NCBI GenBank assembly: GCA_014240385.1
Contig: JAAZXA010000068.1
Coordinates: 29,090-93,089 of the forward strand
DNA from: Methanobacteriota archaeon
GTDB lineage: Archaea > Thermoplasmatota > Poseidoniia > Poseidoniales > Poseidoniaceae
DNA length: 64,000 nucleotides
Direction: 5' to 3'
Of the stretch, positions 2,909-59,156 are shown piece after piece. The notes under the pieces were generated by a model, which was given only the letters and a program-made list of their open reading frames with translations, did not search any database and was not told where the DNA came from. Within the stretch, counting starts at the first letter, position 1, and each line of letters starts with the position of its first letter. The translations under genes were made by a program, and so were the position numbers.

Positions 2909-3856
2909 TCATGTGGGTCCATTGGATTCTCCGTATGCGCCACTTGGTAGAGTCCATCCTCCCCTGGAACGAATCAATTGTCTTTCTTCAATCCATGCCT
3001 CGACGAGGTATGTGACGCCTTCGTATGGTGTTCCTTTCTCTACCAATTCTCGGACACTCACGCCTTGCTTGATTGTAAAACCGAATTCTTCTTCGTATTT
3101 CGCAATCTTCTCCACCATTGCTGGATAGAGTTCGGCGGCTGATGCCCATTGATTCGCATTTCCGAATATGCAGGTAATGCATGACAGTCTGCCCCATCCT
3201 AGCCAGTATGCTGGATGAGCCATGATTCTGTGTTTTTCCATGATTTCCCACACTTGTTTTTCTGTCCAATCGTGAATTGGCCTCCAATGATGCACCGTTC
3301 TCAATTTTCCATGACAACGGTGATTCTCGAAGGTGTTGTAGTTGGATCGTGATTTGCTTTCTCCTGCTCTCTCACCAGTCACAACAAGGGTCTTCTTGCC
3401 CTTGAATCGTTCTTGGTTGTTGATTGCTGCGCTCATCACATCGATTTTCAAATAGGCACTGCACCATCTTACCCGCAGATCTGCGGAGACTTGTGGAAAC
3501 TTGCGCCTTGTACCATCAGGGCCTTTACCCCCTGATGAATCGATTGTTCCGTCTGGGTTCTCCCAGAACACCTTGCCTGTCGGGCTGTTATCTCGTAGCA
3601 TCTCTTGCTCGAATCCGCCATCTCTCCAACTGAAGTAGATGGGAACATTGAATTCCTTTGCGAATTCCCGACAGTAATCTTCTGTTATCGGCCAATCCAT
3701 GAATGGATCGCTTCCTGGCGCACCATCAATGAGATGGTGCCACAGTTCTATTTTCTCTTTGTCAACACCGTTGTCTAGCAGGTCAAGGAAACAAGCTGTT
3801 GAGTCCTTTCCTCCGCTAAAGGCAACGATGATGTAATCGTATTCATTTAGGTTCAT
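2909..3856 (-). CDS. PP-loop ATP pyrophosphatase (PAPS reductase / DndC / QueC-like superfamily)
   Basis: N-terminal YIIVAFSGGKDSTACFL = SGGxDS PP-loop; motif start 3854-3856; 315 aa. Confidence 0.6.
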   Translation of the reverse strand: MNLNEYDYIIVAFSGGKDSTACFLDLLDNGVDKEKIELWHHLIDGAPGSDPFMDWPITEDYCREFAKEFNVPIYFSWRDGGFEQEMLRDNSPTGKVFWENPDGTIDSSGGKGPDGTRRKFPQVSADLRVRWCSAYLKIDVMSAAINNQERFKGKKTLVVTGERAGESKSRSNYNTFENHRCHGKLRTVHHWRPIHDWTEKQVWEIMEKHRIMAHPAYWLGWGRLSCITCIFGNANQWASAAELYPAMVEKIAKYEEEFGFTIKQGVSVRELVEKGTPYEGVTYLVEAWIEERQLIRSRGGWTLPSGAYGESNGPT

Positions 3857-5478: not shown

Positions 5479-6354
5479 TCAAACTGGAACCCATAGTTTC
5501 CTGCCATTAGATGAACAGGCTCGGACTAGAGAGGCTGCAGCACTTGGAGAATTGAAGGTCACATCTCGAGTAAATCGTAAATGTTTGCCGTCTTCAATTA
5601 TTGCTCCTTTTTCAAGGAGTTCTTTTCTCCATCTTTGCTCGCTTAACCTCCATGAGTCTCGGGGTTGCTTGTTTGCTGTAGATCCACGAAATACCACGAA
5701 CTTCTCGTTGCGGTATTGGCCTGTTGCTTCAACACCATTTGTTAGTGCAAGCTTCAGCATATCGTTGTCCCAGTATTCTTCTGATAGCCAGTTTCCCTTG
5801 TTATCCATGCATAGAACCTGCTTACCGCCGGCTCCTTCCCATGGACTGTTTGAAAATACGACTGATACTGACGGCCATCTTGACGCTCCGCCCTTAACAT
5901 GTGCAGGGCCGGTGAAGTCAAGTCTCCCTTTGAAGAAAACCAAATGCGAAGCATGAGGAAAAATCCAATTATGCCACATCAGGGTTTCACAGTTGGTAGG
6001 TCGGATTAGCAAGACGACGATTTCTGCATCGCCATTCTGCACAGAATCAAATGCCTTCTTTACGAACGGTTTGATTCCGTGGCTTGTTTTGCTGGAGTAT
6101 GGCGGGTTGCACCATACTATTCCTTCCCACTTCTGTTCTAGGGAGTCCATCTCAATATCGTAGTAATTCTCGCATAGGGCGTTTTCTTCGCTTGCAGCCG
6201 CATCCAATGTGAATGGGCCGAATCTGGCATTTAGAGAATCGAATATTGCTGTCGGAGTGCGCATGTCGTTTTCATCGCTATTCTTCTGCTTTCGATTCTT
6301 ATGCCAGGAGCGAACTTCCTCTGGCGTCATTTCAATTGATATCTTTTCAGACAT
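5479..6354 (-). CDS. DNA N6-adenine methyltransferase (phage Dam-like family)
   Basis: IVWCNPPYS catalytic NPPY motif; motif start 6352-6354; 291 aa. Confidence 0.7.
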   Translation of the reverse strand: MSEKISIEMTPEEVRSWHKNRKQKNSDENDMRTPTAIFDSLNARFGPFTLDAAASEENALCENYYDIEMDSLEQKWEGIVWCNPPYSSKTSHGIKPFVKKAFDSVQNGDAEIVVLLIRPTNCETLMWHNWIFPHASHLVFFKGRLDFTGPAHVKGGASRWPSVSVVFSNSPWEGAGGKQVLCMDNKGNWLSEEYWDNDMLKLALTNGVEATGQYRNEKFVVFRGSTANKQPRDSWRLSEQRWRKELLEKGAIIEDGKHLRFTRDVTFNSPSAAASLVRACSSNGRKLWVPV

Positions 6355-7246: not shown

Positions 7247-8152
7247 TCAGTCTCGGTAATTCGGGAACTTGTAGTACATAAGCCACCATGTTCCTCTAAT
7301 CTCATCGCCACAATTACTGCAGCATTGAGCCTTGCCGATACTTTTCTTCGTTTGTGTTCCGTAACAGTAATCGATTGGTTCTCCTGCTTCGCTACGGAAT
7401 AGTTTCTCGATAACTGACTTTGGAATATCATTTTCAGCCCATTTGAACACAAGTGTTCCATTGGTTTTCAATAATCTCCATAGTTCTCGGAATCCCTTAG
7501 CGAGGTTTTCTTGCCAATCATGTCCTAGATACCCATACTTCATTGTGATGAATCCTGTGCCTTTCTTTTTCACATGGGGTGGATCCCATACGATGTGATT
7601 GAAGGTCTCGTCATCAAATTGAGGTAAGTAGGTGAAGTCCCCCAGAATATCTGGTTTGCATTCCCATCCGGGTTGGGATGGTATAGGCACACCGTCTGGG
7701 TCTTTTCGAGGCATCATTACTCCTTGAGAGCCTTCGCCTTTGACTTCTATCCTTTGATCTAGGAACAATACATTCGGATTGTTTTTGTGGTTTTTGTGCC
7801 AAATCGACCTTGAACCTGCTGTTGCATCGAGGATCAATAATTCATTGGCAGTTGGTATAATGGTTGAGTTGATGGTGATTCTCCACCATCCTCTGTCTAA
7901 ACCATCTTTTTCCACATCTCCTTTTCCTTTCAAGGAACCAAGTGCTGTTCTTACTCGGTGTTTCCATTCGGGTTGATTAGTTCCACATGTGCAGCATTGG
8001 CTGCAGAGATAATCGTCATCGCATAGGTGAGGGAAAGAATCCTTCACATATTCGTAAATGACGGTTATTTTGTGGATTCCCTCTGGAACCACTTTCGTTA
8101 TTCCACCGTCCATTAGTTCCTTTTGCAATTTTCTGTGTTGCAATTGTTGCAT
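7247..8152 (-). CDS. DNA methyltransferase (N6A/N4C class) with Cys cluster
   Basis: IVWDPPHV (DPPY-type motif IV); motif start 8150-8152 (..EEPLM QQLQH.. in track ORF 7247..8209); 301 aa. Confidence 0.55.
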   Translation of the reverse strand: MQQLQHRKLQKELMDGGITKVVPEGIHKITVIYEYVKDSFPHLCDDDYLCSQCCTCGTNQPEWKHRVRTALGSLKGKGDVEKDGLDRGWWRITINSTIIPTANELLILDATAGSRSIWHKNHKNNPNVLFLDQRIEVKGEGSQGVMMPRKDPDGVPIPSQPGWECKPDILGDFTYLPQFDDETFNHIVWDPPHVKKKGTGFITMKYGYLGHDWQENLAKGFRELWRLLKTNGTLVFKWAENDIPKSVIEKLFRSEAGEPIDYCYGTQTKKSIGKAQCCSNCGDEIRGTWWLMYYKFPNYRD

Positions 8153-8162
8153 GAGCGGTTCC

Positions 8163-9002
8163 TCAGTTCCATCGCATTGCAAACCTGATAAGGTACTTGC
8201 GTTTTGCACATGAGGTCCTTATTGTAACAAACATAGTTCCATATCCGTTAGGATGGCCGTCGTTGACGGTTAGGTCTGTTGGACAATAGATTTCGATTCG
8301 GGCATTGTTCAATACCCAATTCGGCATTTTTGCTAATTGATCTAAGCGGTAAGCTTCTAGCGTCCCCGACATCTTAATTCCCCCTGGGTTATCAATGGGA
8401 ATAATGACGGTGTTGCTTTCCGATTCGCCTGCGGTTCTGCTTAATTTGAATTCGTTCTCATCAATTGCAAATTGTGTTTGCTGGAATGATTGTGCCAATG
8501 ATTTCAATTTCATCTTCAAGTTTTTGTCTTGGATAGTGAAATTCCTATTAGGCCCCCTCATCCTCTCGAGTTTGGGGTTCATCAAGGATTGAGATGAAAA
8601 ATCGTTGCGGGAATTTTTCCATTTGGAGTTGTTTCCCCAACGCATGGTGAATTCACCATCTTCATCTTCTAATTCAACGGTTGATTTGCCTGCAATTGAG
8701 GCTCCACTCATTCCTTTGAATGTTTTCCATTGCGTCTTGGAGAAATTTCTTCCAACTTCTCCATTGGCAATTTCGTGATTAGAATAGTCAATCCGGTTCA
8801 AACTGAGAAGTGGCATTATCTCTTCATTGCCTATACTCCACCATTCATGCTCCTGTGAATTGGGGTCAATTACAGGTGCCGTTGATGAAAGGAGGAGGCC
8901 TTGTTCACAAAATCCGATTCTAATCGAATCCTCGTTTCCAATTAAGCGATTGGCTATGCCAATTATCTGTCTATTTGCTGTAGCATCTAGTGTTGCTTTC
9001 AT
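8163..9002 (-). CDS. hypothetical protein, 279 aa
   Basis: motif start 9000-9002. Confidence 0.55.
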   Translation of the reverse strand: MKATLDATANRQIIGIANRLIGNEDSIRIGFCEQGLLLSSTAPVIDPNSQEHEWWSIGNEEIMPLLSLNRIDYSNHEIANGEVGRNFSKTQWKTFKGMSGASIAGKSTVELEDEDGEFTMRWGNNSKWKNSRNDFSSQSLMNPKLERMRGPNRNFTIQDKNLKMKLKSLAQSFQQTQFAIDENEFKLSRTAGESESNTVIIPIDNPGGIKMSGTLEAYRLDQLAKMPNWVLNNARIEIYCPTDLTVNDGHPNGYGTMFVTIRTSCAKRKYLIRFAMRWN

Positions 9003-11785: not shown

Positions 11786-12142
11786 TCACAACTTCATCAA
11801 CTTTCCCCGAAGGGATTCGAATTTGATGATCCTTTTGATAGCGTTTTGAAATTCCTTGTTCAGTTTTTCATCATCTGATTCAGATAGATGGAATTCAGGG
11901 TTTTTCATATTCAGTAATTTGTATCTCATCACAGAATTGACGAGGAATTTCTGTTCTTCTTCACTCAATTCAGACCTTGGGCGGTTGATTTTGTAATTGT
12001 TAATCAGCCGTTCCAGAACAAACATTTGTTCTCTATGGTCGTATGAGCATGTTTCAAGCCATTGTTTTGCTTCGATTCGTAATTGCTTTCGAAGATCAAT
12101 AACCCTTTCAGTTTTTTTCCTCAAGTGGGTTAGGTTCGTCAT
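11786..12142 (-). CDS. hypothetical protein, 118 aa
   Basis: variant motif catgagtggtt, start 12140-12142. Confidence 0.5.
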   Translation of the reverse strand: MTNLTHLRKKTERVIDLRKQLRIEAKQWLETCSYDHREQMFVLERLINNYKINRPRSELSEEEQKFLVNSVMRYKLLNMKNPEFHLSESDDEKLNKEFQNAIKRIIKFESLRGKLMKL

Positions 12143-15919: not shown

Positions 15920-17191
15920 TCATTCCAGTATTTTCTGCATCTCCTTTTCGAGCAAAGCATCATTTCTTCGTGCTATGTGCTCTTTCATGGAGTATCGCAG
16001 ACCGTCATACTTGAGGCTGTTCAGCGTAGCCTTGCCAAGATTGGCAACAGGCTTACGCTCATACCAGTCTTTTCGCTTCATCATCTCGCCTGTAACGGGA
16101 TGAGGAACGATTTCATTTCCTTCTGGGCTTTCAGCGAGTTTCAACCATTGGAAGGGCATCAATTTCCATGCGCCTATCTTCTCAGTATATGGCTTGAATT
16201 CTTTCTTGTAGCCCGAAAGTCCTGATTTCTTATCGGGTTCTGGTGTCATCTTGTAAACATGAGTACAGTTAGGATCTTCGCACCATCCACTAGCCATAGG
16301 AGTCCTATGGTAGCCTCGGTTGCATCTACCTCCCTTGTTGAGAGGCATTCCATCTCTGTGCCATTTCTCATGCTTGTCTTCTGAGTAGAAGCGTTCTTCG
16401 ATTCCTAGAGCTTCTTGCAGCCCTATACCATCAGCGTCAATCAAACGGTCAACTTCCCATTCTTTGCAGAATGGACACCACATGCATGAACTCTTCTGGA
16501 CTGGGGAGCCATCTCCCCTGTAATCCCATCCAAGTATCTGCAACATGGCGAGGCATTCTTTCCTATTCATGTCCAATTCCTGGAGAGGATAGGAGTATTC
16601 ATGCCCTTTGACTTTGTTTTGACCGTGGTTTGCTGTGAATCTGTCAGTTCTTCCACCTTCGTTGGCTTCGATGCCAAGCATCCACCATTTTTCCGATACA
16701 GTATGGTCTCCAAAGGTTTCTTCTGCCCATTTCTGTTGGACATTTCCCTTGAATCTCATGCTGCAGGTATGTTGTTGTCCTCCAATTACTGGAAGCATTC
16801 CTCCATCCATCAACCATTCATAGATCTTGTAGACCTTTTCTCCCTTGGTGTAATCATCCTTCTCTGATTTGGGCAAACTTCTCCATTCTTCATAGCGGAG
16901 TTCTTCGCCTGTATCATTGTGATGATAAACGGGGATTGTGTGTCTAACGGTAACTACTGGCAAGCCTACTTCTGCGCATCGCTTCTCTGCGTATGCAAGG
17001 TTTTCGTAGGTTTCAGGCCATTCGCTACCGGGATCCGAGAATACGGCTGCAACGAATGGAGGAAACTTTTCGTCTAGTTCTTGTCGAGTTATCCCCAACG
17101 CTTCGGCTGAGGTGTCTCTGTCTAAGTGCATGGCTAGAAGGGCTGTTGAATCAACCCCTACGCCAAATGATAACAAGTCTATTCGTTTCAT
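15920..17191 (-). CDS. PP-loop-like / PAPS-reductase-like domain protein, 423 aa
   Basis: N-terminal LLSFGVGVDSTALLA resembles SxGxDS PP-loop; motif start 17189-17191. Confidence 0.4.
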   Translation of the reverse strand: MKRIDLLSFGVGVDSTALLAMHLDRDTSAEALGITRQELDEKFPPFVAAVFSDPGSEWPETYENLAYAEKRCAEVGLPVVTVRHTIPVYHHNDTGEELRYEEWRSLPKSEKDDYTKGEKVYKIYEWLMDGGMLPVIGGQQHTCSMRFKGNVQQKWAEETFGDHTVSEKWWMLGIEANEGGRTDRFTANHGQNKVKGHEYSYPLQELDMNRKECLAMLQILGWDYRGDGSPVQKSSCMWCPFCKEWEVDRLIDADGIGLQEALGIEERFYSEDKHEKWHRDGMPLNKGGRCNRGYHRTPMASGWCEDPNCTHVYKMTPEPDKKSGLSGYKKEFKPYTEKIGAWKLMPFQWLKLAESPEGNEIVPHPVTGEMMKRKDWYERKPVANLGKATLNSLKYDGLRYSMKEHIARRNDALLEKEMQKILE

Positions 17192-17198
17192 GAGCGGT

Positions 17199-17954
17199 TT
17201 ATTCCATAGATGCAATCTTTTGCTCTATGGCTGTGTGCTTTCGAAAGATGCTTAGGCATCTAATTCGTGTGTTTGGGCCACAGGTGATTGATACCACACC
17301 ACATCTTGTTGCCCCTTTGGGCTGAATGTAAACCAAATGGTGTAAGGCGAGGAGATATCCTCCTGGCTTTAGCACCCTGATGGCTTCTTTGACCCATGAA
17401 TAGGGCTTGATGTATTCTGTTTTCCATAACTTGTCGGAGTAATCTATCTTGACTCCGTCTGTTGTTTGCATGTCGTAAGGTGGATCTGCAATAACCATGT
17501 CGTATGAATCAGTTTCAATAGGGAACTGTTGTCTGGCATCAGCTACGAATGTAGGATTATTCGCTTCGCTAATGTCCATTGTGTCTTCATTCTCCCTTCC
17601 TTGGATGCTTCCCGAGAATAGGTGTAATACCTTGGTTTCATCGGTGACTTCCATTAGGGCGTCTACTCTACGAAGGAACCCATTTGGGTAGGCTCCCTTG
17701 TATTTCGCCATTGGTCGGCCACAAGCCCACCCTAGACGGAGTGATTTTTCCGTCATGTGGGTCAATGAGGCGTCTTTCTGTTTCAATTTGTTGTAATGCC
17801 TAGCGATTCGATGAATCGTCCCTTTCGAAACTGTTTCACCAATCCTATCGCCTGCCATCTTAGCAGCATCGTCATACGAGTTATTGCTAAGATCGTTGAT
17901 TACTTGCATATGGTCTAGCAATTCAACCTTTCTTCCTTTCAATGTTAAGGACAT
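17199..17954 (-). CDS. DNA methyltransferase (DPPY, N6A/N4C class)
   Basis: MVIADPPYDM motif IV; motif start 17952-17954; 251 aa. Confidence 0.6.
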   Translation of the reverse strand: MSLTLKGRKVELLDHMQVINDLSNNSYDDAAKMAGDRIGETVSKGTIHRIARHYNKLKQKDASLTHMTEKSLRLGWACGRPMAKYKGAYPNGFLRRVDALMEVTDETKVLHLFSGSIQGRENEDTMDISEANNPTFVADARQQFPIETDSYDMVIADPPYDMQTTDGVKIDYSDKLWKTEYIKPYSWVKEAIRVLKPGGYLLALHHLVYIQPKGATRCGVVSITCGPNTRIRCLSIFRKHTAIEQKIASME

Positions 17955-29592: not shown

Positions 29593-30459
29593 TTATGTCC
29601 AAAGACTCCTCGTCATCCTCCATATCCCTGCTTTTGCGAAGTCAGGGTGTTTTTCTATCCCTACTGCGTGTCGCCCTGTGAGCATCGCAGCCAATCCTAG
29701 GCTGTATGATCCTGCAAACGGGTCGAGCACTACATCTCCAGGATAAGTGGAGAAGCGAATAAGTTCAATCAAGAGTTCAACAGGCTTTTCTGTCTGGTGA
29801 ACCTTCTTCCTACCCATCATTCTAGAGTGGGTTTGAACATCTGCTATGCTGTTATTGATTCTTCTGCGCTTCCCTTTCGAGAAGAACAGAATTAGTTCGT
29901 GTCGTGGCCGACCATTGTAGCCAAGTGATATGACTTTCTTATCCCATACCCATTGGCTATTGAATGTGAAACCTGCGGCTTCTGCAATCTTGATTTGATT
30001 GTAGATGTAGTCGTAGGTGTCGTGCTTTGCTGCAGGCATGAAGCAAAAGAAGTGTCCATTGGGCTTCAAGACCCTAAGCATCTCCGAATACAAATCCGAA
30101 TCGATGTCTTTGGTCTCAAAATCCCATCCCTTCTTGAGATTCCTTGCTCGGGTAGTTCCCGTCTGCATTTGAGCATTCAAGATTGAATACGGAGGATCTG
30201 TGATGATAGCATCGAAGCTGTTATCTTCTAACTTTGCTAATTCATCCCAACTGTCTCCTTCAATCAAAGCGCATTGTGTGTCGCCAACTGTGGCGATGTA
30301 TATGCCTCTTGATACTCTGCGAAAGCACTTGTCTATGTTTTCATTGAGTCTTCCACGAATTGTTGTTTCCTTTTCATCAGGCAATGCTTCGTATATCTCC
30401 TTGAGATTCGATTCATTGTCTGCTAGAAATTCAACCAATCTTTCTTTCAATGTTTTCAT
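29593..30459 (-). CDS. DNA methyltransferase (beta-class N6A/N4C, DPPY with C-terminal FxGxG)
   Basis: AIITDPPYS motif IV and VVLDPFAGSYSLGLAA motif I; motif start 30457-30459 (..TEPLM KTLKERL..); 288 aa. Confidence 0.65.
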   Translation of the reverse strand: MKTLKERLVEFLADNESNLKEIYEALPDEKETTIRGRLNENIDKCFRRVSRGIYIATVGDTQCALIEGDSWDELAKLEDNSFDAIITDPPYSILNAQMQTGTTRARNLKKGWDFETKDIDSDLYSEMLRVLKPNGHFFCFMPAAKHDTYDYIYNQIKIAEAAGFTFNSQWVWDKKVISLGYNGRPRHELILFFSKGKRRRINNSIADVQTHSRMMGRKKVHQTEKPVELLIELIRFSTYPGDVVLDPFAGSYSLGLAAMLTGRHAVGIEKHPDFAKAGIWRMTRSLWT

Positions 30460-30480
30460 GAGCGGTTCAGTTTGGGTCAA

Positions 30481-40778: not shown

Positions 40779-40802
40779 GTGGGGTATGGGAAGACTTTGT
40801 CT

Positions 40803-40860
40803 TCCTCATTAGCATAGGTCATAGGGGCCGTAGGCCCTGACCGTTTTAGTCATGTTTTGG
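40803..40860. repeat. two-hairpin element, copy 1 (..CCTCATTAGCATAGGTCATAGGGGCCGTAGGCCCTGACC + T/GT-rich tail)
   Basis: hairpin GGAAGAC-tttg-TCTTCC then GGGCC-GTA-GGCCC; 3 copies (40803, 41195, 42041). Confidence 0.65.
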
Positions 40861-41034
40861 TGCTAAGTTTTATTCTACCTCTCGATAGAAACGGCGCAAA
40901 GCAACCTTTGGACTCCTCCCGTAAAGGGTGGTGTGTGTGGTGTTACGGGTGTCCATGGGTCTCTCTCGCCAATAAAGCGAGTTGTAGGCGTACTCCAACG
41001 CCTCGTTGTTCGTCAATGATTTGACTACACCTCA

Positions 41035-41168
41035 TGGTGGACCGTGCTGGATTCGAACCAGCGGCCTCCTAAGACAGACAACTTCGACTCCTTCCGTCCT
41101 GCCCGGGACAGTTCGGTTTTTGTCTTATTCTGTTTCTTAGGCGCTCTTCCTGACTGAGCTAACGGCCC
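41035..41168 (-). tRNA. archaeal-type tRNA with ~57-nt anticodon-loop intron and encoded CCA; isotype unresolved
   Basis: revcomp reads GGGCCGT-TA-GCTC-AGTCAGGAA-GAGC-G-CCTAA[64 nt]TTAGG-AGGCC-GCTGG-TTCGAAT-CCAGC-ACGGTCC-A-CCA: all four stems canonical; loop+intron between CCTAA/TTAGG. Confidence 0.7.
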
Positions 41169-41194
41169 GTAACGGTGTTTTGAGGAAGTATTTC

Positions 41195-41250
41195 TTCCTC
41201 ATTGGTATAGGTCATAGGGGCCGTAGGCCCTGACCCATTTGTGTGTGGTT
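41195..41250. repeat. two-hairpin element, copy 2
   Basis: GAGGAAG-tattt-CTTCCTC then ATTGGTATAGGTCATAGGGGCCGTAGGCCCTGACC, GT-rich tail, then start-less TGTGAGCGGTTT (41261-41272). Confidence 0.65.
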
Positions 41251-41376
41251 TTTGTGTGTTTGTGAGCGGTTTAGCCTGATTTCCAATCCATACTGACGAA
41301 CTTCCTCGTAAACCAATTCTGGCCTTTCGGCACTCTCGGTTTGCGTAAGAGAGCGAGATCGTTCCCCGTGAGGGGC

Positions 41377-41646
41377 TTAGATCTTCGTAGCTCGCCTTCT
41401 GTTCACCTGGAACCATTGCTGGTACAGGTGCTCTCCAATAACTACTGCTGCAGGGTCGAGCATCGGGTTTCCGCTTGCTAGTGGACGGTCAAAAGACCAA
41501 TCCATGTGCTTACGGTGTTGCCGATATTGCTGTCGCCTGTAACTCAAATAGGGGTGTCCTTCACCGTCAAAGCGGTGTCGGTAACGATATTTTCTTATTT
41601 TTCCCCTCTTCCCAGCATTGGAAATCGTTTGTTGGCTAATTTGCAT
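41377..41646 (-). CDS. basic R/Q/Y-rich hypothetical protein, 89 aa
   Basis: ATG 41644-41646, no motif and no SD; in control region; weak. Confidence 0.25.
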   Translation of the reverse strand: MQISQQTISNAGKRGKIRKYRYRHRFDGEGHPYLSYRRQQYRQHRKHMDWSFDRPLASGNPMLDPAAVVIGEHLYQQWFQVNRRRATKI

Positions 41647-42040
41647 TTATCATACAAGCCCTGAACTACCTCATGTCCGTGGGGCTAATCCACATTGTCC
41701 TTTCGGAGCGTAGAATCACCTAAGCAGCAACCAGCCGCTTTTGCTTCGTAACATATCGGACCAACTGACTAATGCCAGTAGTGATTAAGTCACCAACGAG
41801 GTCTTTTCGTCAATGTTACGGTTTTCGGTGGACTACATGGGAAAGGAGCGATGATAGTCGCTACTTTCTCTCAATGTATATCCGTTAGCCGAGAAGAGGC
41901 ACCAAAAGGTGCGGGTATCTCTATTTCTCGACCCGGTGTCTCGGTGAAGTCCTCTTTCGAGGGATCCTCCGCCTTATCCCCTATCTCTAGGGTTTAGCAG
42001 ATACTTCGTGTAGGCCCTTGAGCCAACCGAGAGAGGGCAT

Positions 42041-42100
42041 TCCTGTCCTCATTAGATGAGGTCATAGGAGCCCTAGGCCTTGCCGTAGCAAGGTGGTGTG
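42041..42100. repeat. two-hairpin element, copy 3 (diverged: GGAGCCCTAGGCC)
   Basis: TCCTGTCCTCATTAGATGAGGTCATAGGAGCCCTAGGCCTTGCC + GTGTGTGG tail. Confidence 0.55.
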
Positions 42101-42101
42101 T

Positions 42102-42545
42102 GGTATAATTTCTTCGTGGTTTTAGGCCACAGGAGGTATATGAATAGGCCCTTTTACTCTCTTTCCTTTGGATCTAGAGGCCTCAAGCTGCTACTCTTGG
42201 CCTCTTTCTCTAGAAAGAGTGTATTTTGGGTATTTCTTCATGTTCTCCACTGTATTGTGCCACAGGGGGTATATGAATAGGCCACTTGCAGTCAATTTCA
42301 AGATCGCTGAAAGGGCATGATTAGCTTCTCATGCCTTCGCTTTCAATTATTGCTTCAATATGGGTATTTCTTCATGTTCTCCACTGTATTGTGCCACAGG
42401 GGGTATATGAATAGGCCATATTTCGGTAACATCTCCAGATCTCTCCTTCGAAAGCTACTCCTGGCATGGCCGTAGGCCAAACAGGGTGAAATATGGGTAT
42501 TTCTTCATGTTCTCCACTGTATTGTGCCACAGGTGTTATTTGGCA
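42102..42545. promoter_or_regulatory. periodic array: 4 direct ~56-bp units (period ~126-134 bp), each ending in GGTATATGAATAGGCC box, immediately upstream of TFB gene
   Basis: units at 42102-42150 (degenerate), 42228-42283, 42361-42416, 42495-42533 (last lost the TATATGAA box); unique ~75-bp segments between units. Confidence 0.7.
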
Positions 42546-42563
42546 AGGCCGTTTCCGTTAACC

Positions 42564-43694
42564 ATGGCGAGTAATGACGATACGGCCAATCAGATGGGGG
42601 CGACTGCTGATTTTTCGTCAATATCGTCTGTCCTTTGTCCTGCATTCGAACAGCCGCCTGGGTGTGCCGTCTCCCTTGCCAAGCAACAAAACTTTGATTC
42701 TTTGTCAGTCGACTCTATGACTGGGAGGGCGTATTGCGGATCATGCGGCGTGGAATTCGTTGTTGACCGTTATCAGGTTAGTCATGAGCAGAAAAAGAGT
42801 GATGATGGGATAGAAACCTACGGATCTGTTCTCTCCAAGTCTGGGAAGCAACGGAATAGGGAACAATCCTTTGACCGCCTGGGCTATCTTTGTATTAGCA
42901 AGTTGGACTTATCTCAAAGTGTGTTGGCACAAGCTACCCGCTACCTGTACGATATGATGGAAGGTGGAGCCGCTAAAGGAGGTCGGGGTTTTCCCCAACT
43001 CGAAGTGGTTGCGGCTTATGTGGCAGGTAGAATGCATAATCAATCCCTTACTCTCGAACATGTTGTTAATATCCATCGAGATTGGATTACAGAAGAAGGG
43101 GAGTTCAAATCGATAAAGGCGGCATCTATGAAATCAGTTAATCGATTGCTGCAGAATATGACTAGGGAAAACATTCTGCCTTACCCCCGCCCTTCTGCAG
43201 ATGATATCATTGGTTCTAATTCGTGGTGCTTGGCTAATCTAGATGAAGTCATTATTCAGAATGCTAAGGAGTTGTCTAATTGCGGAGTCCAAGGTTCCCC
43301 CGATTCTATTGCTGCAGCATCGGTGATGGTGGCTGCGAAGAATAAGCGTGTTGTGAAACCCGGAGATGACTTATCGCGGCCACGAACACAAATGGCCGGA
43401 GAGGAAGATGGGCAGCGTTTAACGCTCGAAGTGATTGCCAAATTGTTTCCTGGCACTACTGCTAGAACTGTAAGGCGAAGAATGAAAGAGATTAGGGATG
43501 TTTTGGAACTTAGGCTACCTCTAACACGAGAGCAAGTAGAGGTTCTTGAAAATCCTGATCCCCGCAAGGTGCGTGTCCGTAATACTGTTGAGGAAGTATT
43601 CAGTCAATTGGATTCGGAATTGGAAGGAAAGATACCATTGACTTCTAAGGATGTAGCAATTCTACGAAAATTGAAAGATTCAAACAAGAGGTAA
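42564..43694 (+). CDS. tfb: transcription initiation factor TFB/TFIIB homologue
   Basis: N-terminal Cys cluster (CPAFEQPPGC...CGSCGVEF), two cyclin-like repeats (LEVVAAYVAGRMHNQSLTLEHVVNI), C-terminal BRE-recognition-helix-like TTARTVRRRMKEI; ATG 42564 (track ORF starts earlier inside repeat array). Confidence 0.65.
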   Translation: MASNDDTANQMGATADFSSISSVLCPAFEQPPGCAVSLAKQQNFDSLSVDSMTGRAYCGSCGVEFVVDRYQVSHEQKKSDDGIETYGSVLSKSGKQRNREQSFDRLGYLCISKLDLSQSVLAQATRYLYDMMEGGAAKGGRGFPQLEVVAAYVAGRMHNQSLTLEHVVNIHRDWITEEGEFKSIKAASMKSVNRLLQNMTRENILPYPRPSADDIIGSNSWCLANLDEVIIQNAKELSNCGVQGSPDSIAAASVMVAAKNKRVVKPGDDLSRPRTQMAGEEDGQRLTLEVIAKLFPGTTARTVRRRMKEIRDVLELRLPLTREQVEVLENPDPRKVRVRNTVEEVFSQLDSELEGKIPLTSKDVAILRKLKDSNKR

Positions 43695-44135
43695 TGTGAT
43701 TTCCCTTTTGGTTTTCTTGGAATCTTTTCTGTATTGCAACAGAACATAATGGATGTCTCTGCGATTGTAGCTTCCGTTTTCATCTGGTTCTGCGGACCAA
43801 CAGGCATACCTTAGTGAGCGGTTTTCTTCCTGCATTAGTTCCAACATGGTTTCAGGGCCAACGCTGTACACTTCCTTGACTTCTCTGAGAGATAATTGCT
43901 CATCTGGAACTAATCGCCAAAGTGTTCGTCTGTATTCTCCTGTTCCATCCTTTGTTCTTTCAACACCTGCTGGATCAAACCTTTCTGGGTATGATGAAAG
44001 GATCCCAGCAATTACTGATTTCCGTTCTTTACCCATTTTGTCTAGTATTCGGTCAAAAGGGAGAATTTCATCTTTGGACTCATGGAAGATTTTCTCAATC
44101 TTTGGGACAAGGCGGTTTTTTGCCTTCCTTGCCAT
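43680..44135 (-). CDS. hypothetical protein, 151 aa (possible wH regulator)
   Basis: ATG 44133-44135 preceded by GAGGGGGATGAGG SD-like purine tract; no ACCGCTC motif. Confidence 0.45.
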   Translation of the reverse strand: MARKAKNRLVPKIEKIFHESKDEILPFDRILDKMGKERKSVIAGILSSYPERFDPAGVERTKDGTGEYRRTLWRLVPDEQLSLREVKEVYSVGPETMLELMQEENRSLRYACWSAEPDENGSYNRRDIHYVLLQYRKDSKKTKREITLPLV

Positions 44136-44428
44136 CAGGCCTCATCCCCCTCGTCCTTCCTAAGTTGTGTGAGTTCTTGCACCAGCCGCCAGACTATGTC
44201 GTCCATTGTCTCGCCCCTGTTGCCGAGGCTATTCAAGATTTCATGCGTTCTTTGCTTAACATTGATGTGTTTCAACTTTGAGCCGTCTGCCGCAATGTTC
44301 CCCATGAGACCAACTGTGTGTATCTGTCGTATAAGCGACTCGGAGGGATTGGGATGGGATGTGAAAGGCTGTGATACTTGGGCAAGAGGGGAGAGAGTTT
44401 ATGCACCGTGCGCTGAAAGGCGCCCATA

Positions 44429-54995: not shown

Positions 54996-55297
54996 AAGGA
55001 AAATAAGGGTGGTCTCGGCTCATAAACCCCACGATGGGGGAAGACTAAACCGAATGATCCCCGTAGGGCCAAGTGGACGGCAGGAGGGGCATCGGAGAGG
55101 TCGACACACGCAAATGTGCAGACTCCGATACTCCTGTCGTCCACCTGAGCATTAGAAATAAATGGCGGCGGTATATGTGATCTTCGCTGACCCCCCCCCC
55201 ATGAAAGTGAAAGTGTTGAATATGAATTGAGCCCCGGCGATACTGAGGGTATATGAACTATGCATAGTGGAAGAATTTCCTTGCGGCAGTAATGAAG

Positions 55298-57563: not shown

Positions 57564-58385
57564 CTACTCTTCCTCAGTCGCTTGATTGTTTTGGAAAGGA
57601 ATGGTTATTTCAGGTTCGGCCACAAGGGTTGGATGTATGCCTTCTACTACCTCTCCATCAACATCCATCATGCCATAGATGTACAAATTCTTTTTCTCGA
57701 GAATGTTCTTGATTGTCTGTCTGTGCCAGACCACCTTTCCCTTCCTTGTTTTGATGGCTTTTGTTGCTAGTTCATTGATTATGTCGGATATTGTGTAGCC
57801 TTGAGTTTCCATATTGAAGATTATGTTTACTACGCTTGCTTCTTCTTCGTTTGGTACAAGCAAACCTTTCTTGGATCTCTTTCCTGTATCATCGATTTCA
57901 ATATTCATGTCATACCCATAGGGGGGTGTTCCAAGCCAAATTCCTTTCAACTTTGCACCTGCCATGCCCATTTTGACTCTTTCTTTGATTTCATTTCGCC
58001 TTAGTTCAGCCAATGCTGCGAATACTATGTAGAAGAAGCGGCCTTGAACCGTTGTAGTGTCCATTTGTTCAGAGATACATGCAATATGGCAGTTGTTTGT
58101 ATCAATTGTGTTTACAAATTCAATTGCGTTCATGGTGTTGCGATGAAACCGGTCTAGTTTGTAACCAACTACTGCGTCCCATTCTTCGCCCATGGTTTCC
58201 ATCATCGCACCATATCCAGGCCTGTTGTCTGTGAATCCACCTGATCCTGTATCTGAGTAGCTTCGAATGTAAGTCCAACCTTGCATTTCGATGTAGTTCT
58301 GGCAAAGCCTCAACTGTTCCTCTAGGCTGTGGCCTTTTGCTTCTTGCTTCTCGGTTGAAACTCTTGTGTAGATTATTGCTCGCAT
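57564..58385 (-). CDS. serine recombinase (resolvase/invertase family) with C-terminal extension
   Basis: N-terminal MRAIIYTRVSTEKQ catalytic-Ser motif; GGAGAGGAAG SD; 273 aa. Confidence 0.7.
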   Translation of the reverse strand: MRAIIYTRVSTEKQEAKGHSLEEQLRLCQNYIEMQGWTYIRSYSDTGSGGFTDNRPGYGAMMETMGEEWDAVVGYKLDRFHRNTMNAIEFVNTIDTNNCHIACISEQMDTTTVQGRFFYIVFAALAELRRNEIKERVKMGMAGAKLKGIWLGTPPYGYDMNIEIDDTGKRSKKGLLVPNEEEASVVNIIFNMETQGYTISDIINELATKAIKTRKGKVVWHRQTIKNILEKKNLYIYGMMDVDGEVVEGIHPTLVAEPEITIPFQNNQATEEE

Positions 58386-58703: not shown

Positions 58704-59082
58704 GGTTCGTTCACCATAACCTTGGTTAATTGTCGCTATGAAGGGTCAGTCGTATTACACCTTCGCCCTGTGAACCGAATTATCACCCGTTTAACACGCT
58801 ATTCCCCCCCACATAGGGGGTATGTTGACGATGAAGGAGTTCCTTTGCGCTCAACCCCCCCACCTTCATAGTCAAAAACGGGTATTTTTCACCTCATAAC
58901 TTCTCATTGAATCGCAAGTCCTCACATCACATCTCAATTGTAAGGTTGGGGTGGAATGAACCTCATGTGGTTCTGCGCTTCTAACCTTCGTTCACAGGCA
59001 ATTCCAATTCCTATCTACACATTAGGGGTGAATTACCTACTTCGTGCAACAAGGGATCTAGATGAAACAATAGGAAACAAGG

Positions 59083-59156
59083 CGGGTCATGCAGGGTTCG
59101 AACCTGCGGCCTACTGGTTAAGAGCCAGTCGCTCTACCTGACTAAGCTAATGACCC
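59083..59156 (-). tRNA. tRNA-Lys (anticodon CTT), archaeal-type
   Basis: revcomp GGGTCAT-TA-GCTT-AGTCAGGTA-GAGC-G-ACTGG-CTCTTAA-CCAGT-AGGCC-GCAGG-TTCGAAC-CCTGC-ATGACCC-G(CC). Confidence 0.75.

Follow-up and report, generated by a model that had tools for sequence, protein, structure and literature searches.

The left end of phage T7 reportedly carries the tandem early promoters A1, A2, and A3, strong promoters that lie in the same orientation ~125 bp apart at the start of the early region, before the T7 RNA polymerase gene. Multiple tandem promoters in repeated units are also known from the rRNA operons of haloarchaea, and the rDNA of Xenopus combines spacer promoters with enhancer repeats. 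Direct repeats serve other purposes as well: the iterons of replication origins are phased repeats of ~17-22 bp beside an AT-rich unwinding element and an initiator gene, and CRISPR arrays combine repeats of 23-47 nt with unrelated spacers subject to turnover between strains, and come with a structured repeat RNA or with neighboring cas genes. Among the viruses of marine archaea, the magroviruses (Aoguangviridae) are tailed, have two oppositely transcribed gene clusters, and possess an annotated TFB gene, so that a virus-encoded TFB as such is already known (PMC10768690).

The window that we analyzed, a stretch of DNA of 64,000 nucleotides, contains four direct repeats at 42102-42551 (a degenerate first copy followed by three that match exactly over 39-57 nt) in a divergent non-coding region of ~900 bp directly upstream of a TFB/TFIIB-like gene. 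Based on the sequence comparisons presented below, we think it somewhat more probable than an even chance that promoter modules were duplicated in tandem to form this array, within the divergent control region of a virus. As in T7, a rightward-firing array would head the gene for the virus's own transcription machinery, here TFB-like. Unlike the T7 promoters, which are of the bacterial sigma-70 type and do not repeat one long unit, the modules are blocks of 57-80 bp that are near-identical within a genome and of an archaeal, TATA-like type, and the activity and direction of their internal copies are predicted. The resemblance to the haloarchaeal and Xenopus rDNA is that a gene promoter would be tandemly duplicated upstream of a highly transcribed unit and homogenized within the genome, and, if the internal modules fire leftward, that a stable-RNA cluster (a large RNA and a tRNA) would be fed. 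Those are cellular rRNA loci, however, whereas the present array belongs to a virus, lies between divergent units, and has a proximal copy that would serve a protein gene, TFB. In contrast to the situation in the magroviruses, tblastn finds no match to the TFB-like protein of this element among the phage and virus records of GenBank, and the magrovirus profile does not describe a promoter array (PMC10768690).

The array marks a strand switch, with nearly all ORFs of 1-41.6 kb on the minus strand and those of 42.5-53.5 kb on the plus strand. Its predicted products, among them head-closure, baseplate-like, and virion proteins, PAPS-reductase-like proteins, several DNA methyltransferases, glycosyltransferases, and a serine recombinase, mark the element as a tailed virus of marine archaea, and a tRNA gene with a 64-nt intron (Rfam, 48.9 bits; missed by ARAGORN) supports an archaeal host. 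The serine recombinase, with Resolvase and Recombinase domains, is encoded near a tRNA-Lys gene; together they may represent a module for integration, in which case a temperate lifestyle would be favored. There are two PAPS-reductase-like proteins. Coordinates are collected in Table 1.

Table 1. Features of the array, its surroundings, and other loci of the window named in the text
Feature	Positions	Strand	Description
PAPS-reductase-like proteins	2909-3856, 15920-17215		
Dam-family methyltransferase gene	5479-6354	-	
Further DNA methyltransferases	7247-8209, 17199-17954, 29593-30480	-	
M2, first copy	40804-40845	-	
Non-coding stretch	40846-41037		~190 nt; separates the 3' end of the intron-containing tRNA from M2, first copy
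Intron-containing tRNA	41038-41168	-	
M2, second copy	41197-41237	-	
Putative large structured RNA	~41280-42040		~800 nt, immediately left of the array
M2, third copy, with hairpin	42047-42094	-	M2 (CCTCATTnnnnnnGGTCATAGGrGCC) 42047-42085; hairpin CCTTGC/GCAAGG; directly left of unit 1
Unit 1	42102-42150	+	5' half degenerate; CCACAGG 42127-42133; TATATGAA 42137-42144; GGCC 42147-42150
Inter-unit segment 1	42151-42227	.	77 nt, unique; one GATC at 42171-42174
Unit 2	42228-42284	+	T1-type box CTTCATGTT 42236-42244 (relatives: GTTTATGYT); dyad CAC..GTG 42248-42259; CCACAGG 42260-42266; TATA-like TATATGAA 42270-42277; GGCC 42280-42283
Inter-unit segment 2	42285-42361	.	77 nt, unique; one GATC at 42302-42305
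Unit 3	42362-42418	+	Same as unit 2 over 57 nt; CCACAGG 42394-42400; TATATGAA 42404-42411; GGCC 42414-42417
Inter-unit segment 3	42419-42494	.	76 nt, unique; one GATC at 42438-42441; hairpin GGCCGTAGGCC
Unit 4, putative gene-proximal promoter of the TFB-like gene	42495-42551	+	First 39 nt as in units 2 and 3; CCACAGG 42527-42533; in-register box TATTTGGC 42537-42544, 27 nt 5' of the ATG; GGCC 42547-42550
TFB/TFIIB-like gene	42564-43694	+	376 aa; Cys4 zinc-ribbon-like N-terminus and two cyclin-like repeats
151-aa protein gene	43680-44135		Convergent, beside the TFB-like gene
GTTTATG box of gene 44429	44397-44403	+	
GTTTATG box of gene 54995	55021-55027	-	
Solitary box copy GGGTATATGAA	55247-55257		
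Serine recombinase	57564-58385	-	Resolvase and Recombinase domains
tRNA-Lys	59081-59156		

The repeats are clearly not a product of chance, as the 39-mer GGGTATTTCTTCATGTTCTCCACTGTATTGTGCCACAGG is found exactly at 42228, 42362, and 42495, where shuffles predict none, and GGTATATGAATAGGCC is found exactly at 42135, 42268, and 42402, against 0.39 occurrences expected. In register, the copies begin at 42110, 42243, 42377, and 42510, with periods of 133, 134, and 133 bp. The original prediction of four repeated units separated by unique segments of ~75 bp was thus essentially right, the segments measuring 76-77 nt. Its period of 126-134 bp narrows to 133-134 bp, the lower figure reflecting a shift of ~7 nt in the register given to the degenerate first unit; the third unit begins one nucleotide later than the 42361 given. 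The last unit was said to lose the box and to run into the TFB start codon: it does carry TTATTTGG where the other units have TATATGAA, but it ends 13 nt short of the ATG at 42564. The additional box announced near tRNA-Arg exists as well, at the position given in Table 1 and not at 55241-55251. The claim that TATATGA forms the core of the -27 boxes of the plus-strand genes did not survive, since the window holds 6 occurrences against 6.8 expected, 3 of them inside the array, and none lies 27 nt upstream of any other plus-strand gene in the 64 kb.

In each unit, a GTTTATG-type box is followed by a small dyad, then by an invariant CCACAGG, then by an AT-rich TATA-like box (TAYAWRAA), and finally by GGCC. 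Each unit holds two TATA-like boxes, T1 and T2, 33 bp apart, which precludes fixing the start site. The T1 element is of a promoter type in this virus, given that genes 44429 and 54995 both have GTTTATG exactly 31 nt upstream of their ATG and that similar boxes lie 30-32 nt upstream of the orthologues of those genes (for example at L002:~2567). In clade B, the tRNA-Lys and tRNA-Arg genes have the reverse complement of this box, CATAAAYGGCTGAACC, ~30 nt upstream, and a shared downstream element follows it (L009:11058-11087 and 12102-12131).

The prediction would have been undermined by syntenic relatives devoid of the array, and we found none: the array is kept in all 13 related metagenomic loci with upstream sequence, from Tara Oceans and other marine assemblies, with 2-5 units spaced by 120-135 bp; shorter related contigs break off within the array. 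These loci fall into three clades, and their TFB-like proteins are 44-76% identical to that of the window (~75% for L001-L003 and L010-L015, 44-47% for L004, L009/L016, L017, and L023). The conserved block spans about 57-80 bp, with the plus-strand consensus GYAAnnTGG-N5-GTTTATGYT (T1), dyad (C-R-T-A N4 T-A-Y-G), CCACAGG, RRG, TAYAWRAA (T2), NN, GGCC. CCACAGG and GGCC are essentially invariant and stand at a fixed distance of 13 nt, and the internal boxes hold the register CCACAGG-N3-box-N2-GGCC in all units. T2 itself appears as TATATGAA, TATAAAAA, TACATAAA, TAAATAAA, or TTGATAAA, its core positions being T or A in 28-32 of the 32 distinct internal units while the other positions vary. Repeats are identical within a genome and ~70% identical between clades. 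In clade B, the segments within one genome are near-identical to each other, and the number of internal units differs among close relatives (one in L017, three in L004, four in L023), which together point to unequal recombination and homogenization. Beyond these loci, searches of GenBank phages with DNA and protein queries gave no match and IMG/VR returned only the contig already found. Three single array matches in bacterial GTDB genomes, as well as a candidate relative (L022), were discarded as chance matches.

Comparison of L001 with L011, L013, and L015 locates the constraint in the repeat and not in the spacer, since the inter-unit segments (87-94% identical) drift like the 4-fold degenerate sites of TFB (87-97%) and the repeats (97-98%) do not. 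The sequence between the modules thus looks like an essentially neutral spacer, in which the features kept are its length and one GATC. These data bear on the proposal, made in the original prediction, that the units are promoters for short non-coding RNAs, in which case each of them would drive a functional RNA of ~75-100 nt acting as a regulator, a guide, or a decoy. The repeated layout of a promoter-like box and a unique segment of ~76 nt would suit such genes, short islands recur in the segments (GATC and AGCTnCTCCTGGC-like), and the window's segment 1 gives a favorable fold (z = -3.2). However, the segments diverge at a synonymous rate and carry 1-2 nt indels between close relatives, 7 of 8 segment folds are ordinary (z from -1.0 to +0.2), and no register-consistent covariation was detected. 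By blastn-short against the masked 64-kb window, the three segments of the window gave no match beyond 13-14 nt, so that no complementary target of at least 14 nt was found there for antisense RNAs or guides, and the near-identity of the clade B segments within a genome is not that of a repertoire. The segments do not behave as a structured small-RNA gene family, and we regard this proposal as improbable. A derivation of the segments from decayed copies of the TFB 5' coding sequence could not be demonstrated (local alignment against shuffles, p > 0.05 in 17 of 23).

The same observations effectively refute a CRISPR-like or other guide-RNA array, in agreement with the original prediction. Conserved repeats do alternate with unique segments, but the segments are orthologs that differ between relatives through drift by point mutation, with no spacer turnover, they are without matches elsewhere in the window, and in clade B those of one genome are copies of one another. 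The conserved block of 57-80 nt, the lack of conserved RNA structure in the repeat, and the absence of any cas-like Pfam or PHROG match among the 30 ORFs scanned also speak against such an array, to which we give next to no chance.

Within the repeat, RNAalifold found essentially no structure (-1.8 kcal/mol, 0 compensatory pairs), and the covariation of the small dyad is weak, 12 of 500 shuffles reaching the observed score, with only 3 supported pairs (at pair 7-16 of alignment A3: 12 AU, 8 GC, 7 GU). The repeat was accordingly set aside as a structured RNA, and, together with the ordinary folds of the segments, this result favors a function at the DNA level. Coding potential was also rejected: micro-ORFs starting at the ATG in TATATGAA lack this codon in many units (TATAAAAA, TATATCAA, TACATAAA), and ORFs through the repeat are interrupted by stop codons in relatives.

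The gene that follows the array had been called a TFB, which we can uphold as TFB-like on the grounds of a weak Pfam match and clear support at the fold level. Its start codon is the ATG at 42564; ORF finders extend it to a GTG at 42486 because the repeat itself is translated. The Pfam TFIIB match scores 21.7 bits against a cut-off of 23.6 and is found in 6 of 7 family members, and four cysteines (C25, C34, C58, and C61) are invariant. No match to the PDB was obtained at the sequence level, and the protein has only 11 relatives among 5.8 billion proteins. Foldseek, run with an AlphaFold model of moderate confidence (pLDDT 66.5), returned TFIIB, TFB, or Brf chains as its top 22 matches, with E values down to 6e-8 and with the TFB of P. 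woesei (1ais_B) among them. Taken together, these features give the protein the N-terminal zinc ribbon and the two cyclin-fold repeats by which the TFB/TFIIB family is recognized.

In archaea, the TATA box lies ~24-30 nt upstream of the transcription start, which is the start codon in a leaderless mRNA. In the window, clade A, L002, and clade B alike, the AT-rich box that occupies the register of the internal boxes in the proximal unit (TTATTTGG, TTTTATCA, or YTATATCA) is found 27-29 nt 5' of the TFB ATG, and no Shine-Dalgarno sequence precedes this gene, whose plus-strand neighbors have GGAGG. From this combination we infer a leaderless TFB mRNA with the last unit as its promoter, in line with the promoter-like character that the original prediction had seen in the units and now supported by the position of the box in three clades. 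Autoregulation by the viral TFB would be compatible with this arrangement.

The internal units share in-register homology with the TFB-proximal box, which makes them, in our reading, copies of the TFB promoter region. We propose that each block is a DNA-level protein-binding platform, whose layout would fit the assembly of TBP, TFB, and RNA polymerase, with an extra regulator possibly on the dyad and CCACAGG. The module nearest to the gene would start the leaderless mRNA for the virus's own TFB-like factor, and the 1-4 upstream modules per genome, which have a more canonical, purine-flanked TATA box, may be added initiation or factor-loading sites by which transcription from this hub would be strengthened or timed. 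What the comparisons show is the anatomy, the conservation, the pattern of constraint, and the place of the last box relative to the ATG; that the internal modules initiate, in which direction they do so, and whether GATC methylation plays a part are inferred. A homogenized array of promoter modules before a viral TFB would offer a testable cis-element for viral control of the archaeal pre-initiation complex, and it opens questions of promoter strength, TFB specificity, and methylation gating.

Since the conserved block (~70 bp) exceeds a basal archaeal promoter in length and CCACAGG is absent from all other promoters of the 64-kb window, the main reader of the array could be a dedicated DNA-binding protein instead of the basal machinery. 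Carried further, this would make the array a set of operators, enhancer-like sites, or a centromere bound by a regulatory protein, in which the internal units do not initiate and only the proximal unit is a promoter. Candidate readers are the TFB-like protein itself and the product of the 151-aa protein gene, which is syntenic in all relatives; repeats that are alike within a genome and differ between clades are what sites co-evolving with a cognate protein would give, and the dyad shows some compensatory change. Against this, the variable AT-rich box in fixed register resembles a TATA box and an operator would not vary so, the dyad statistics given above are weak, the 151-aa protein has no Pfam match, and the scanned ORFs include no ParA/ParB-type partner. 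We judge such a binding array to be unlikely, although less so than the other alternatives to promoter modules; a dedicated regulator on the dyad and CCACAGG is a rival to be taken seriously, or may act in addition to the promoters.

If the internal modules are promoters, their direction of firing has to be weighed. Pointing rightward are the homology with the TFB-proximal box, the RRG purines upstream of the internal boxes (the proximal box being preceded by pyrimidines), and a GRCC element shortly downstream, an arrangement shared with other oriented promoters in these viruses. Leftward pointers are the minus-strand reading of the box, TTYATATA, which has the canonical archaeal polarity, and the solitary copy of the box, for which only leftward firing makes sense because it lies inside an all-minus-strand module. 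Match scores to oriented reference boxes are tied (6.6 versus 6.9 out of 10), and homology between the box and the M2 motif described below, significant in 3 of 11 comparisons, was dropped as evidence of polarity. On balance, firing toward TFB seems slightly likelier than the reverse. No clear oligo-T terminator is present between the units, and rightward transcripts would consequently read through and give TFB long leaders devoid of a Shine-Dalgarno sequence. In the leftward alternative, the internal modules would fire toward the large RNA, the tRNA, and the 40-kb leftward operon.

Exactly one GATC is present in 38 of 40 inter-unit segments, 28-50 nt after CCACAGG and hence around the predicted start site, and GATC is depleted genome-wide (147 observed versus 236 expected). 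The virus encodes a Dam-family methyltransferase, and firing may be tied, through this GATC, to methylation by the Dam-like enzyme. At least three further DNA methyltransferases are encoded on the minus strand. AGATC is a termination motif in the archaeon Haloferax (PMC7237163); as a terminator in the array it was not retained beyond a mere lead, the position of GATC relative to the box shifting by 22 nt.

One GATC per unit and a Dam-like methyltransferase would also be in keeping with iterons of a viral replication origin, another reading put forward in the original prediction, as would direct repeats identical within a genome and a large non-coding region where two gene blocks diverge close to a minimum of cumulative GC skew (36-38 kb). 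Like plasmid and phage iterons and centromeres of the sopC/parS type, the repeats are the same within a replicon, diverge between replicons, and contain a small dyad each. Unlike iterons and sopC, whose repeats of 17-43 bp are contiguous or closely phased, they are blocks of 57-80 bp set apart by ~45-75 bp of neutral spacer, and neither a DUE nor any Rep or Par gene was found near the array. The period of 120-135 bp is far from ~20 bp, the lowest GC content in 80 bp is 0.39 against 0.44 for the genome, which leaves no AT-rich unwinding element, and no initiator (Orc1/Cdc6, Rep, MCM) was found beside the array or among the 30 ORFs scanned. Furthermore, GC skew in the window merely tracks the direction of transcription, and the last repeat occupies the position of the TFB promoter. 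An origin is therefore quite improbable, a shade more so than the small RNAs.

Returning to promoter modules, one can conceive that the repeats are high-affinity landing pads in which an extended element, GCCACAGG-N3-TATA-N2-GGCC, is read specifically by the divergent TFB that the virus encodes. Such an array would work either as an amplifier with positive feedback or as a bidirectional switch, gated by GATC methylation at the start sites, and would divide the RNA polymerase of the host between TFB on the right and, on the left, the large structured RNA, the tRNA, and the 40-kb operon. We hold this elaborate scheme to be speculative and rather unlikely as a whole; if true, such landing pads would be a virus-encoded system of promoter specificity in archaea, analogous to phage sigma factors.

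Immediately to the left of the array is a conserved stretch of ~800 nt, flanked by copies of the M2 motif, with homologues at L001:8612-9438, L014:2532-3367, L009:8590-9387, and L017:8985-9746. It retains ~72% nucleotide identity to relatives whose TFB is only 46% identical, and it is non-coding, as tblastx matches shift frame. Its predicted fold comprises 188 pairs in 28 helices, 93.7% of the paired cells form pairs, and 59 pairs show compensatory changes, a number that none of 500 shuffles attained (30±3.6) and that compares with 5-12 in slid controls; the folding energy and the balance of G-U versus A-C favor the minus strand. By these comparisons, the stretch behaves as a large structured RNA. 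Rfam recognized no family over 40800-42700 except the intron-containing tRNA. The large phage RNAs GOLLD and ROOL offer a parallel, in that here, too, a large RNA adjoins a tRNA, in this case the intron-containing one. Between the second and the third M2 copies, the distance is 1353-1397 nt in some clade-A relatives and 868-877 nt in others (L012, L013, and L015 compared with L001, L010, and L014), a difference that implies an insertion or deletion of ~500 nt within or beside the large-RNA locus. The tRNA and the first M2 copy are separated by a non-coding stretch of ~190 nt.

The M2 motif, CCTCATTnnnnnnGGTCATAGGGGCC followed by a GC hairpin and an TGTGTGTGG tract, occurs three times and is kept in all relatives. 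On the minus strand, ORF 40778, the intron-containing tRNA, and the large RNA each have a copy 30-48 nt upstream, so that M2 is probably a class of leftward promoter. With M2 as the likely leftward promoter of the large RNA, the whole region would be a divergent control region. The array would thus mark a control region that apparently expresses a previously undescribed structured RNA of ~800 nt and a highly unusual operon. Read on the plus strand, the hairpin of M2 is followed by a T-rich run. The hairpin that lies between M2 and unit 1 (42079-42094), CCTTGC-CGTA-GCAAGG, becomes CCTGCA-ACAATG-TGCAGG in clade B (L004:~275-292), with both arms changed and the pairing kept.

ACCGCTC occurs 93 times on the minus strand of 1-39100, and 82 of these occurrences directly abut an ATG, usually just after the stop codon of the preceding gene (examples are the starts at 2382, 3856, 4586, 9002, 13733, 17954, 25596, 33203, and 39071). 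This zero spacing rules out a classical Shine-Dalgarno sequence; genes in other modules have GGAGG 7-10 nt upstream. Candidate roles for ACCGCTC are reinitiation or translational coupling, an RNA processing site, and an initiator element. Together with the large structured RNA, this element may matter more than the array itself. Among the other 11 minus-strand occurrences, 8 read ACCGCTCAC.
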